Below are positions 12,082-33,957 of a stretch of 64,000 bases of DNA, one piece after another; the first letter of the stretch is position 1, and each line of letters begins with the position of its first letter. Origin of the DNA: Octopus vulgaris (lineage: Eukaryota); NCBI GenBank assembly GCA_951406725.2, contig OX597821.1, forward strand, positions 106,268,001 to 106,332,000, given 5' to 3'. A program made the position numbers and the translations under genes. Below the pieces are notes generated by a model. It was not told the origin of the DNA. It was given only the letters and a program-made list of their open reading frames with translations, and made no database searches.

Positions 12082-12162
12082 TTATTTCTGATACTTGATA
12101 CCGTCAAGAGTTGGTTTATTTTGGGTAATAAAGGCGGTGATGGTCACTAAACAACCGATCAT
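12082..12162 (-). CDS. GRL gene A, terminal exon 4 (MIGCLVTITAFITQNKPTLDGIKYQK*; TM7b)
   Basis: Strong polypyrimidine acceptor ttcttttctcttctttag. T-I-T-A-F-I-T-Q is in register with the GR TYhhhhhQF motif. TAA stop at 12084-12082. Confidence 0.8.
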   Translation of the reverse strand: MIGCLVTITAFITQNKPTLDGIKYQK

Positions 12163-13706
12163 CTAAAGAAGAGAAAAGAATTAAGTGAGAAAATCAGTAT
12201 ATACATGACATTTATAAAAGCCTCAAAAAATAGCATCATCATCATCATCATCATCATCATCATCATCATCATCATCATCATCATCATCATCATCATCACC
12301 ACCACCACCACCACTACCACTACCACCACCACCACTACCATCATCATCATCATCATCATCATCATCATCACCACCACCATCATCATCATCATCATCATCA
12401 TCATCATCATCACCATCATCATCATCATCATCATCATCATCACCACCACCATCATCATAGTCATAATTATCATTAGGTCGGCGTGCTGGTAGAATTTTTC
12501 GCGCACCGGACCAAACGCTTACTAGCATTACGTTTGACGATACTACCTGAGTTCAAATTCCGCCGAAGTCGACTCTGCCTTTCATCCTTTCGAGGTCGAT
12601 AAAATAAGTGCCTTTTAAATACTATAGTCGATGCAATCTTATTCCTACCCCTAAATCTGTTGGTCTTGTACCAAAATTTGAAACTATTATTGTTATTATT
12701 ATACAAATTTTTTAACTTTGTTCTGCATCACTAGGTTTGTGGGGCAGTGATTTCTCAGTTTTTGTAACAATTAGAAGTGTCCTGAAAGCTTGTGTTGTTA
12801 TGGGGTTGAGTTTAATGTTTCTTATTCTAAAGCATTTTCTGCTGTGTTGTGTTGTGTATTGAGTGGTCAATGTGAGTAATATATTTGGCGAGTTGTGTTA
12901 CTCTATTCGAGATATATGTTGCCTGAGTCGTGTTGATTTGTTATTAGGTACTTGTTGTACAGGGTATATATTGTGTATGAAGATTGTTATTTAAGTTATT
13001 CTATTGAATCGTGAGCTATTCTATTGGACTAATAGTGCTTTGTGCAAAATGTCTGCTATTCCTCACCGAGATATTGAAGTATCTAGTGCTATGAGCCCTG
13101 GTATAATTTTTACGTTTCTTTCCATAATTTATAATACATAGTGTTCCAACTCGTAATCGTACTGTTTTCACTCTCATACGTCTCACCTTGAATATTTCAA
13201 TTTGAAAATCCGTGTATTTTGACAGATACACTACTTCTTTTAGAAAAAAATCTTTACATCAGAGTTGAATACGATATCTTTCAGTGTACATGTGTTTCTT
13301 TTCCAATTTTATATTATGTAAAACTGACAGAGAGTTCACTTTGATCTCTTTGTTAGTTTTGATTGGTATATCCCAGATTATTGTTTCCAGGTCGTTAGCA
13401 TGTGCCATACTTGGTACATGGTAGCCTATCTCCTTACTAGTTTTCGGTGAGGTGTTGGCATATTACCCAGTGAAGTAGCTGCCTCCATGACCATTTATGT
13501 GAAAAGGACTGGACAGCCGGACATGATGTGATCAAAATTTCATTATTATGGTTGCACATCCTTCATTTGGTGTGAAGATACGTTCTTGTAATCTTATTGT
13601 TATATTGTATATCTATCTATCTATCTATCTATCTATCTATCTATCTATCTATCTATCTATCTATCTATCTATCTATCTATCTATCTATCTATCTATCTAT
13701 CTATCT

Positions 13707-14656
13707 AAAACGTTCTGCACGCACTCGTGCAGTGTCCAACAACTTCCTACCTGTAGGCTTATGTCGAACAACTGCTGTCACGTGTGGGACGAGTCGGTTT
13801 ATCAGCTCAGTCTATCGTTAATATTGTCACGCCTCCTTCCTTCAAACGGGAAGGAAGAGCTATTTTCATCATCCTTATGGCTATGGCGAAAGAATGTATC
13901 TGGTGGACGCGTCTGAAAGGATTGGAGACAAACACTTTCCTCTCTGGTCAACCTCTCATCAACTTCTTCAAGTACCACTTGAAAAGGAAAGTGAGAGTAG
14001 AGAGGCAAGTTTTGTCTAGCGAATGTTTTAAAAAAAGATGGGTGAATGTAGCAAGAATGGCACGTATGAATGACGAAGCCACCTTGAGCATAATCCTATG
14101 GACCCAGAAATTGAAAACAGAGGGTTACCCATTTGCAAACAAATGTGGTAACATATAACAATATTGACCAAGGTTACCGTGGTCTTTTTCGTAGGCTTTT
14201 CTTCCCACGGATAAACCTTACTTGCTTTCCCCTTTACACCATACATCATGACACTGTGATACACGATCCTTATTGATCGTTTTTTTTCCTCTCCCCTTTT
14301 TTTCCTCTTTTATCTTCTTTTTTCATTTTCTTTTCTTTATTCACTTTTTTCTTTTTTTTTCTTTTCCATTTTTTTCTGTTTTTGTTCTTTTTTCCCTTTT
14401 ACGATCCCTTTTGACCGAAAACCTACGCCGCCTTTTTTTTTGTTTTTTTCTCCCCCAAAAGAAAAGCTCTACCTTGTAACTTGTCCCATCTGTGTGCAGC
14501 CCTGTGTGGCCAATAAAAAAACTTATCTATCTATCTATCTATCTATCTACTCCCTCCCCTTTCCTTTTTTTTTTTTTTTTAAACCTTCAAAAGAAAAGCT
14601 CTACCTTGTAATTTGTTCTATCTGTGTGCAGCCCTGTGTGGCTAATAAAGAAACAT
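13707..14656 (+). mobile_element. 3' fragment of an L1/Tx1-like LINE inside a (TATC)n microsatellite, with a duplicated 3' end
   Basis: VLHALVQCP (CCHC tail) ...AKECIWWTR. A pyrimidine-rich 3'UTR ends in aataaa followed by (TATC)n; a second 3' end lies at ~14550-14656. Confidence 0.6.
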
Positions 14657-15048
14657 ATCTATCTATCTATCTATCTATCTATCTATCTATCTATCTATTT
14701 ATTTATTTATCTATATATATGTGTGTCTGTCTATCTGTTTTTCTATCTATCTATCTATGTGTCTGTCAGTCTGTCTGTCTTTCTATCTCTATCTGTCTAT
14801 CTAACAATCTAACCATTTTTCTATCTCCCACACTATATACGTCTATGTGTGTATCTGTTTGTGTGCGTCTATGTAAGTGTGTGTATCTGTTTGTGTGCGT
14901 CTATGTAAGTGTGTGTATCTGTTTGTGTGCGTCTATGTAAGTGTGTGTAAGTGTGTGTGTTTGAGTATAATATAATATGAGTAATAAGGCGACGAGCAGG
15001 CAGGAACGTTAGCACGCCAGGCGAAATGCTTATCGGTATTTCGTCTGT

Positions 15049-31319: not shown

Positions 31320-32616
31320 GTAAGTATGAAGCTATACAATGAAGTATTTGTCATGAATATAACATAAAATTTTCGGCTTTAATTTTCCCCGCTGTTATTT
31401 AATTCGCTGCCAATTAAATTTGATAGAGACACATTATATGTATGTATATATATATATATATATATATATATATATATATATGATATAAATTAGAGCTAAA
31501 AACCACTATTATGCAACTCAAACTGTGATTGACATAAACCAAAACATAAATAACAAATAGAATATATTTTTATAAAACATTTAACTAGATCTCAAAAAGT
31601 ATAAAAATGAATAATCAATATATAAGTAAAAAAGTTACGTACGTCTATATATATATATATATATATATATACATATATATATATATATATATATATATAT
31701 ATATATATAGAGAGAGAGAGAGAGAGAGAGAGAGAGAGAGAAAGAGACAGAGAGTGAGAGAAAAAGATAGACAAAGAGAGAAAGACAGTTTGACGGATTA
31801 ACAAATTTTAAATATTGTATATAATAGTTTTTGTTATTCAAACTATTATGCATATGTTCCTATGTATACATGCAAAAACGAGGGAAAGCAAAAAGCGGAG
31901 ACTTTCAGTTGATAAATATTTACGTTGATTCACTGCTGAGTATCATCCGTTGCTGTTATTTTCTGGCTTACTGCGCTACTGCAATGGCGTTTAAATCGAA
32001 GTTAGAATATATGATATTGGAATTCTGTACATTCTTATCGTTTCACGGAGACGGTTGGTGTCCTGTTCCATTGTTGTGTCAGCACCAATTTCACTGAGGA
32101 GACACAGATAATTATTGAATTGTTCATGTCGAAACACTTCCAATCAATTAAGATAAGAAGCCACGAGAGCCACTGCCTTGTACTGCATTAAAAAAAGGGA
32201 AAACGAAAGAAAAAACAAGAATTAATTATTATTATTATTATCATTATTATTATTGTTATTATTATTATTATTATTATTATTATTATTATTATTATTATTA
32301 TTATTATTATTATTATTATTCGATATTTATTAGTTTCAATCAAATTTCTATTGCATCACCTGCTACACTTCCTTGCAGATGAGGTGTATTCTTGATTCTT
32401 TTTTTTTCTGTTTTCGGTTAGAAAATTTGTGAGGCGGAAACTGCATGGAAGTCTGTCATATGCGTGGTGGTGGGTGGTGGGGGGCTTATTTACGTCTTTC
32501 GCATAAGATACTGATAAAAGAAAAACATTTAACATTTATCCATTTATTCGACTAAACTTTTGTAGGCTATGCCCAATGATGCTCACAGTTCAATTACTGA
32601 AGCCTGTACGTCACAG

Positions 32617-32920
32617 TTCTTTTTATCGCATCCGTCATATTTTCGACGTTTTATTAACTAGTTTAATGTAATATTTGGAATGGTGGCTGTGCTTTATATT
32701 CGGGTTAACTAGTCGTTCTTCGGTAGGAAAAAGTGACTTCTGAAGTCAGTAGCTGTCGAAGAACGACTAGTTAACCCGAATATAAAGCACGGCCACAATT
32801 CCAAATATTTCATTAAACTAGTTAATAAAACATGTTGAAAATATGAAGGATGCGATGAAAAGAACGCTGAACGCTGGACAGATACTGACTTCAGAAGTCA
32901 CTTTTTCGTACCGATGTCCT
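32617..32920. repeat. Compound inverted repeat in gene B intron 1
   Basis: ~32617-32722 is inverted at ~32758-32865; the loop sequence gaaaaagtgacttctgaagtcagta is inverted again at ~32883-32908. Confidence 0.8.
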
Positions 32921-33888
32921 TTGCTATCTTTCCTTCTGTCATTGTTATACTCGTTCCCTTGACGCGTTTCTGCTTGGTTTTATGTAAGACTGAGGGCGTT
33001 TCTGCCCTTTTCCCCCCTAACCAACACCCTGTGTTTCTTACTCTCTTTTGACGTTTAGATCGGGAATATCTGTACTGGAAGCTGTTGTGTCTGCAAAAAG
33101 GCTGTTTCTCAAACTTCAGTTTTTTTTCGTTTTTCAAAATTGAGTTGTTAGTTTGGTTGTATATGACGCAGTTAATGATTAACTGTAATAAAAGAAAAAA
33201 GAACATTAGTAATACTGCGATTTTAATGATTTTTTTCAATGTATAATTTTATGTCATACCAAATAGGCTACTGTCGACCTCGGCGGAATTTGAACTCAGA
33301 ACGTAAAAACAAACGAAATACCGCTAAGCATTTCGACCACTGTGCTAACGTTTCTGCTAGCTCGCTGCCTTTGTCATAACAAATATTCTTTTCTACTCTA
33401 GGCACAGCACAAGGCCCGAAATTTTGTAGGAAGGAGCCAGTCGATTAGATCGGCCCCAGTACGCAACTGGTACTTAATTTGTCGAGATCAAAAGGATAAA
33501 AGGCAAAGTCGACTTCGGCGGAATTGTTACTCAGAACAAAATTACATTTGAAATATCTATTTCTTTACTACCCAGAAGGGGCTAAACACAGAGAGGGCAA
33601 ACAATGATAGACAAACGGATTAAGTCGATTATATCGACCCAGTGCGTAACTGGTATGTATTTAATCGACCCCGAAAAGATGAAAGGCAAAGTCGACCGCG
33701 GCAGAATTTAAAGGCAGACGAAATACCGCTAAGCATTTCGCCGGGCGTGCTAACATTTTTGCCAGTTCACAGCCTTTGTCATACGAATTATTGCTATCGT
33801 TGTATCGTAGACTGCTAGATATACGTATGTTTAACGATAAAAATTGTGTGGTTATCTTTACCATAAGCATCGGTGGTTTATCTTTCAG

Positions 33889-33957
33889 ATATATGAAGTG
33901 CGTGAAAATATATTCAATATTACAGATGACTTTAAAAAACCCGATTTTAATATGAAG
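33889..33957 (+). CDS. GRL gene B, exon 2 (IYEVRENIFNITDDFKKPDFNMK)
   Basis: 69 nt between a tttatctttcag acceptor and a GTAAGC donor; homologous to gene A exon 2. Exons 3-4 were not found downstream in the window. Confidence 0.85.

Follow-up and report, generated by a model that had tools for sequence, protein, structure and literature searches.

A stretch of 64,000 nucleotides of the 2.8-Gb Octopus vulgaris genome (contig 8: 106,268,001-106,332,000; hereafter the window, in whose coordinates features are given) contains two genes, A and B, arranged head to head with their start codons 4,762 bases apart. It is practically certain that both encode gustatory-receptor-like (GRL) seven-transmembrane (7TM) ion channels, and it is probable, on the evidence taken as a whole, that they are stand-alone members of an octopus GRL expansion with common-tail arrays and an external chemosensory role. 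Both the kind of protein and the kind of splicing are already known; what is new is a large common-tail GRL repertoire in octopus. Contiguous DNA was scanned for exons over 574 kb (contig 8: 106,218,001-106,792,000). Counts beyond 106,792,000 come from match tables of genome searches and not from scanned DNA, and 'open' there denotes a frame of at least 320 codons, which does not prove intactness.

Exon structure of genes A and B

The exons found within the window are as follows.

24512..25534, minus strand: gene A exon 1, 341 codons (1023 nt), S0 and helices S1-S6, the predicted ligand-pocket part (translation, splice sites, fold)
17907..17975, minus strand: gene A exon 2, 69 nt, phase 0, end of S6 and intracellular loop (homologous 69-nt exon in 9/9 tails)
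16391..16480, minus strand: gene A exon 3, 90 nt, phase 0, S7a and beta-hairpin, predicted anchor domain (exon-3 profile; paralog structure)
12082..12162, minus strand: gene A exon 4, coding part, 81 nt including the stop codon, predicted pore helix S7b, motif T-I-x5-Q-N (profile)
30297..31319, plus strand: gene B exon 1, 341 codons, inverted paralog of gene A exon 1 (translation, alignment)
33889..33957, plus strand: gene B exon 2, 69 nt, phase 0 (blastn E 2e-10)

The four segments of gene A are all open, have lengths divisible by three and are bounded by AG acceptors and GTAAGT donors at three phase-0 introns. Joined, they encode 420 amino acids and span 13,453 bases, in agreement with a preliminary description of this DNA that had completed the gene with exons of 69, 90 and 81 nt (about 420 amino acids over 13.4 kb). 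The small exons are not chance picks, because the 12.5 kb of gene A introns contain just one open YAG-69-GTAAG and one open YAG-90-GTAAG candidate and because, against profiles built without gene A, exon 3 scores 74.5 over a background of about 0, exon 4 ranks first of 255 candidates and exon 2 first of four.

Exon 1 of gene B aligns with that of gene A without gaps (63% amino acid and 78% nucleotide identity) and ends at the same phase-0 GTAAGT donor, so that the pair of 341-codon exons described on opposite strands is indeed present, as is the 69-nt exon of gene B that had been claimed as homologous to gene A's. The last two exons of gene B lie outside the window, 50-54 kb past exon 2. Exon 3 is found at contig 8: 106,352,542-631, and the second intron is therefore about 50.6 kb long; the terminal exon, from contig 8: 106,355,834, is homologous to that of gene A at the acceptor (blastn E 5e-6) and in the 3' untranslated region (UTR; 1e-7) and is 9 nt (three codons) shorter in the pore motif.

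Fold, profiles and motif

An AlphaFold model of gene A exon 1, built from a 37-row alignment, has six long helices (predicted local distance difference test score, pLDDT, 80; predicted template-modelling score, pTM, 0.74). When this model was compared with 48,161 chains, the top eight were all insect odorant receptor (OR), Orco or gustatory receptor (GR) chains (Z 18.3-13.9, root-mean-square deviation (rmsd) 3.9-4.2, 244-300 residues aligned), and the ninth was unrelated (Z 7.0, rmsd 5.0, 156 aligned). In Foldseek, OR and GR structures occupy the first 14 rows, although with E values no better than 0.017, and with template-modelling (TM) scores of 0.55-0.58 for ORs and 0.14-0.17 for the rows of G-protein-coupled receptors (GPCRs); the AlphaFold and Foldseek comparison proposed in the preliminary description thus ranked the anticipated families first, although with weak E values and for exon 1 alone. 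The full-length paralog P0008 (O. sinensis XP_036361416.1) was modelled at pLDDT 88 and has a split S7 (S7a-hairpin-S7b), with helices at 352-367 and 382-401 and two short strands between them. Its model gave 19 matches at E<=0.001 (E 1e-7 to 5e-4), with OR/GR throughout the matches listed and a TM of 0.68 to Orco. Exons 3-4 of gene A are homologous by profile to this split-S7 region, the structure itself being seen in the P0008 model. From the fold match, an intracellular N-terminus, inverted relative to GPCRs, would be expected.

Sequence profiles lead to the same family. P0008 passes Pfam 7tm_7 (31.7 bits against a cut-off of 26.6), as does a second full-length paralog, P0024. A profile search of 1.84 billion representatives returned 178 matches at E<=0.001, bivalve relatives among them, and 13 of 16 relatives chosen from the best 150 of these pass 7tm_7. 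The top match in the ESM Atlas (0.95) is a cluster with 7tm_7 on 35% of its members, and clusters of DUF3537 and trehalose receptors stand behind it. A word-based homolog search with gene A exon 1 placed none of 1102 candidates at E<=0.001, a method so insensitive that it missed the 59% identical relative P0022, and an 11-row profile gave no match in a PDB sequence search. Run over the octopus genome, 7tm_7 gave five weak matches, one of them real (in a second array, described below), and left the 106-Mb cluster undetected.

Three phase-0 3' introns and the motif TYhhhhhQF are described marks of GRs, the motif being partly or not conserved outside insects (PMC9998090; here and below, papers are cited for what their accessible portions state). 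All three introns are of phase 0 in genes A and B and in nine of nine tails, the comparison being one of phase and not of position against a named insect gene. TY-x5-Q is kept in six of the nine tails and the F after Q in none. The S7b motif reads T-I-x5-Q-N in gene A and T-F-x5-Q-R in a neighbouring gene, C, and is broken by the 9-nt deletion in gene B; of TYhhhhhQF, gene A retains the T and the Q only.

That the proteins are instead GPCRs or an unrelated multi-pass family might be argued from the window proteins having no Pfam or PDB sequence match. However, OR and GR chains stand far above everything else in the structure searches and the best GPCR in the Foldseek list has a TM of 0.16, by which this alternative is in effect refuted. 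The original call of GR-like 7TM ion channels is upheld by fold and intron phase and, in part, by profile and motif, with GPCRs far down all fold lists. Identity with the Cys-loop chemotactile receptors was also considered and ruled out, given that the models are all-helical with six to seven transmembrane helices, as opposed to a beta-sandwich and four.

First-exon arrays and common tails

Genes A and B belong to a cluster that starts at 106.23 Mb and in which about 64 long, open first exons are spread over 1.05 Mb of contig 8: 34 intact in the 574 kb, 25 open on the minus strand and five on the plus strand at 107.25-107.28 Mb. The local duplication noted in the preliminary description is thus real as an inverted paralogous pair but was under-called in scale, given a cluster of 60-70 members, most of them with what is very likely common-tail splicing.

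Most of the long first exons lack private 3' exons. The 574 kb hold 34 intact first exons, whose donors fall at the same codon (33 phase-0 GT and one GC), and about 10 broken ones, but only nine sets of the three short 3' exons. Nine of 839 open AG-90-GT candidates for exon 3 score 52.9-91.3 and the others 0.1 or less, the best any-frame match that ignores splice sites being 24; seven of these nine were seeds of the profile (leave-one-out scores 48.5-74.5) and two were newly found. Exon 2 likewise has nine copies, seven of them seeds and two new (30.7 and 17.1, with the next candidate at 3.9), and exon 4 has eight copies in addition to that of gene B. Each tail lies directly behind the last first exon of a run. 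Per tail, the plus-strand runs have 3, 7 (plus one broken), 4, 2 and 12 (plus about six broken) intact first exons; the minus strand has two first exons of a sixth array, which the 574 kb cover in part, and genes A, B and C have one first exon each, each with its own tail.

In a tree of 33 of the 34 intact first exons (in which two long branches joined each other, a join that is unreliable), the 12-exon run forms one clade (100/99) and genes A, B and C another (100/100), and three arrays with 83-90% identical tails have their first exons in one clade. In 12 pairs the ratio of non-synonymous to synonymous divergence (dN/dS) is 0.45-0.80, which is below 1 but high. Past the 574 kb, a genome search (83 matches; 124 of 124 candidates scored) added 43 minus-strand first-exon loci, 25 of them with frames of at least 320 codons. 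Of these loci 31 (21 open) lie at contig 8: 106.977-107.239 Mb, a stretch without any exon-2 or exon-3 match, and seven further exon-3 copies were found below 106.974 Mb; the 31 loci probably constitute one array of about 21-31 first exons on one tail. A second array of six first-exon loci and one tail lies at contig 8: 24.49-24.55 Mb.

This arrangement is one in which each first exon is very likely joined to a three-exon tail, skipping its neighbours. For the isoforms, the evidence comes from annotated gene models of sister species and not from reads, RefSeq isoforms being generally based on transcripts. In O. sinensis LOC118764607, the farthest first exon of the 7-exon array (99%) opens isoform X2 and the second (97%; broken in the O. 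vulgaris genome) opens X3, both on the same tail, and O. bimaculoides LOC106880719 starts with the same distal exon (86%). Isoforms X1 and X3 of O. sinensis LOC118764608 have 71 of 71 tail residues in common and 30 of the 60 residues before them, and X1 and X5 of LOC118764548 have fronts that are 53% identical on a tail identical in 94 of 94 residues. In the 2-exon array, P0008 uses the distal first exon and O. bimaculoides A0A0L8FL56 (P0020) the proximal one, again with the same tail. One assembled contig, from a run only guessed to be RNA, lies on exon 3 of the 12-exon array with no differences over 92 bases and departs from the genome at both exon borders, and thus fits a spliced transcript. 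The arithmetic of one contig (184 unplaced letters upstream of exon 3; exon-2 bin depth equal to 67 of these letters) would fit a splice from a farther first exon, but another contig is in the next bin and this was not counted. When the last first exon of the same array with exons 2-3 was compared with the assembled contigs of four runs (repeat-swamped), no exon-exon joint was found among the matches listed, nor any cover of the nearest first exon. A sequencing-run search with gene A exon 1 found no RNA run among the runs listed; seven of 24 contain part of the exon, four of these being only guessed RNA, and the result has no weight for or against expression.

The intact first exons are interspersed with about 10 broken ones, the intact exon at 106,755,485 is not accompanied by a tail within the 574 kb, and seven near-identical units of about 23 kb at 106.82-106.97 Mb could be haplotype or assembly duplication. 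It could be supposed on these grounds that the additional first exons are stray products of partial duplication or of assembly expansion, and that only the exon nearest each tail is used. This is very improbable on two grounds: first, the first exons within one array diverge by up to 1.1 substitutions per site yet are still open, with the same phase-0 donor (33 GT and one GC of 34). Second, annotated isoforms take the most distal exons (P0008, P0171, P0024).

Common-tail splicing also bears on how the cluster has been annotated. Automatic annotation has produced database entries for a small number of members (O. sinensis LOC118764606/607/608/548, O. bimaculoides LOC106880719 and A0A0L8FL56, O. 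vulgaris CAI9726570.1 and CAI9727297.1). Alternative first exons are annotated in some of these, and all are named 'uncharacterized' or 'hypothetical' except for a single fragment in UniProt, 'Gustatory receptor'. One protein, labelled Octopus vulgaris, is 100% identical to a paralogous exon, and none of the returned database proteins corresponds to gene A or B. The suggestion that default annotation could miss such genes is consequently right for A and B and only partly so for the family, which has its RefSeq 'uncharacterized' models and its UniProt fragment; annotation nevertheless misses the family because a single gene model for each tail would conceal as many as 30 receptors. A literature search, with some subscription papers outside it, turned up no description of cephalopod GRLs. 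The word 'octopus' is absent from the main text, as far as accessible, of PMC9998090, PMC7746228, PMC5850775 and bioRxiv 2023.08.30.555482, whose supplementary lists may include octopus GRLs.

Several further features of the arrays were observed. On the minus strand at contig 8: 106.82-106.97 Mb, the seven near-identical units each carry one or two first exons and a tail and are either a very recent duplication or an assembly expansion. The first exon with the GC-AG type donor at the conserved codon (L090, contig 8: 106,546,299) has an O. bimaculoides ortholog that is annotated as spliced there. Inverted broken first-exon pieces lie within a plus-strand array (L077-L078, contig 8: 106,416,194-638 and 106,424,902-5,366, minus strand), beside four recent duplicates of 95-97% identity. 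The tail-less intact exon (L034, contig 8: 106,755,485-6,618, plus strand) is 60% identical to the five at 107.25-107.28 Mb, and an isolated fragment (L033, 107,770,715) lies 0.5 Mb past those five; L034 and L033 lie on either side of the minus-strand block, possibly as marks of an inversion. The O. sinensis LOC118764548 isoforms of the second array (P0160, P0161, P0030) differ in the last exon too, the pore helix apparently existing in two alternative versions, and in both O. sinensis and O. bimaculoides, isoform X2 is 14 residues shorter through an internal acceptor within common exon 2 (P0171, P0172). In P0032 (oyster, 813 amino acids), P0033 and P0054, two tandem front halves precede one complete tail; these may be models that fuse two alternative first exons, hinting at the same layout in bivalves.

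Proposed function, the window pair and known systems

Helices S1-S6 of insect GRs make up the pocket, S7a together with the inner S4-S6 the anchor and S7b the pore, from which ligand binding swings away the hydrophobic residue after the Q (PMC12635824). The octopus exon borders match that division in the models of gene A exon 1 and P0008, exon 1 corresponding to S1-S6 and exons 2-4 to anchor and pore, and duplication of exon 1 would therefore make a new receptor on an unchanged pore. By analogy, exon 1 would build an outward-facing ligand pocket, the tail would build the tetramer anchor (S7a) and the pore (S7b), and four subunits would assemble as a ligand-gated cation channel, each duplicated exon 1 amounting to new tuning on a fixed pore. 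The choice of first exon would probably be made through alternative promoters, and isoforms of one array should be able to co-assemble. Given that the gate residue is T, N or R, gating may differ from that of insects. The repertoire would sense external chemicals in arm, sucker, skin or olfactory neurons, parallel to the chemotactile receptors (CRs) derived from nicotinic acetylcholine receptors (nAChRs); this role is suggested by the size of the repertoire, its birth-and-death turnover and dN/dS of 0.45-0.8, and channel activity and tissue are likewise put forward as expectations.

A number of observations weigh against this reading. With regard to the family, Pfam gave no 7tm match in five window segments and, at E<=0.05 over 37 first exons, 7tm_6 in only three and 7tm_7 in only two; the 7tm_7 profile proposed beforehand matches full-length P0008 and P0024 and none of the five window segments. 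Gene A is without the Y and F of the motif, and the position of the hydrophobic gate is not F in any of the nine tails (T in six, N in A, R in C). With regard to splicing, support comes from annotated gene models in sister species rather than reads, and the largest array is proposed from a match table. Gene B has codons of the Q region deleted and a 50-kb transposon-filled intron, and the A/B dN/dS of 0.73 is also compatible with relaxed selection. Finally, NvecGrl1, a GRL of a cnidarian, has a developmental and not a sensory role (PMC5850775).

This last point raises the possibility that the channels and their splicing are as described and that their role is non-sensory or internal (development, nutrient or gut sensing, gonad or immune cells), given that NvecGrl1 works in body patterning (PMC5850775) and that GRLs of the ancestral protostome are said to have had developmental roles (PMC6150509). 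Such a role is unlikely. Developmental GRLs number two to four in the sources as far as accessible, as opposed to the 60-70 members found here. Large repertoires with many broken copies and recent tandem duplicates, as in this cluster, are typical of sensory families.

It is slightly less improbable, although still unlikely, that the family is real and the window pair, above all gene B, is decaying, with weak or no expression, a non-gating pore or a place as accessory subunit only. The S7b motif is degenerate in A and C and carries the 9-nt deletion in B, gene B intron 2 extends over 50.6 kb with helitron- and LINE-like (long interspersed nuclear element) remnants, dN/dS among A, B and C is 0.67-0.73, and no full-length database protein was found for gene A. 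Nevertheless, at a synonymous divergence (dS) of 0.34-0.48, genes A, B and C have kept 341 open codons, every splice site and every exon length, they form a well supported old clade (100/100), and a 59% identical fragment (P0022) is present in another assembly. Genes A, B and C form a divergent subfamily with private, degenerate pore exons, and the probable reading remains that A and B are stand-alone members of the expansion.

Further features of the pair are listed below.

24779..25039, minus strand: probable gene-conversion tract in gene A exon 1, codons 166-252, 96% nucleotide identity to gene B (dS 0.10, against 0.75-0.87 in the two most diverged blocks)
30792..31052, plus strand: matching tract in gene B exon 1 (same A/B comparison)
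26081..26566, minus strand: non-coding blocks upstream of gene A (26467-26566 and 26081-26150), homologous to blocks upstream of gene B (blastn 78% and 71%)
29366..29749, plus strand: homologous blocks upstream of gene B (29366-29469 and 29689-29749; blastn 78% and 71%)

The 96% block is flanked by divergent blocks at codons 76-125 and 286-341 with 53-61% nucleotide identity. Because dS shows the same block pattern, it is more likely that gene conversion has acted between the two inverted copies. The upstream blocks common to both genes are a candidate promoter or 5' UTR exon. Within gene B intron 2, window 36240-41286 (minus strand) holds what is presumably a fragmented Helitron-like element of 50% GC with Rep and PIF1-type helicase frames (named from translated motifs), 52060-55911 (minus strand) a seemingly intact reverse-transcriptase-like open frame of 1284 codons, and 46218-48029, 56417-58976 and 60301-60750 (minus strand) broken copies of related elements without long terminal repeats (non-LTR). 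At 27540-28313 (plus strand), 23387-23962 (plus strand), 48703-49293 (minus strand) and 34879-35562 (minus strand) lie what we take, from their translations, to be LINE-like fragments, located in the A-B interval and in intron 1 of gene A, along with one fragment of a mariner-like transposase and one of a Penelope-like element.

Reviews name CRs, GPCRs and ionotropic receptors (IRs) as the classes of chemoreceptor under study in cephalopods and gastropods (PMC11682238), and the receptors and pathways of octopus distance chemosensation are described as open (PMC12507230). The 60-70 GR-like channels provide a concrete, clonable set of candidate octopus chemical sensors. Tentatively, and with a little less than an even chance of being right, they may constitute an undescribed third chemoreceptor system, with more members than the known CRs and variable/constant-exon arrays, one of which, at about 21-31 first exons in 260 kb, would equal Tribolium Gr214 in size. 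In these arrays the choice of promoter would give each sucker or olfactory sensory neuron its own pocket on a common pore with a polar, non-insect gate, the layout having arisen independently of insects.

Comparison with the insect GR/OR proteins of the 7TM ion channel superfamily (PF08395 7tm_7, PF02949 7tm_6; Orco, MhOR5, BmGr9, Gr43a, Gr64a) indicates the same fold, with long S4-S6 and a split S7, a similar length of about 390-420 amino acids, three phase-0 3' introns and, in six of nine octopus tails, TY-x5-Q. Sequence identity is nevertheless only 6-15%, the insect F after Q is replaced by T, N or R, genes A and B fall below Pfam detection and are known here from sequence and models, and no Orco-like co-receptor was identified. 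Outside arthropods, GRLs are known in molluscs (PMC7746228), and the numbers given in the accessible parts of the reports are four in Nematostella, three in Trichoplax and two each in spionid annelids (PMC5850775, PMC11730519). These belong to the same family as the octopus set; reported at two to four genes, they are small beside about 70 octopus first exons, and the octopus cluster would be, among the counts found, an unusually large GRL family outside arthropods and nematodes. The CRs, pentamers that derive from nAChRs and number up to 26 in O. bimaculoides (PMC11526382), resemble the octopus GRLs as lineage-expanded ionotropic candidates for taste by touch and differ by an unrelated fold.

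The closest parallel in gene layout is found in the spliced GR loci of insects: Drosophila Gr23a, Gr39a and Gr28b with 2, 4 and 5 splice products, Tribolium Gr214 with 30 long 5' exons and three common 3' exons (PMC6307266, PMC6720082) and cockroach Gr60a-m with 13 alternatively spliced forms (PMC6175461). The octopus arrays have the same tandem long first exons leading onto three common short final exons, found in five arrays and, in part, in a sixth. They differ in having a mollusc as host and in lying several side by side on both strands over 1 Mb, and genes A, B and C, which stand alone with their own tails, are unlike these loci. The octopus cluster would represent, in a mollusc, the insect-style swap of a ligand-binding exon on a constant pore.

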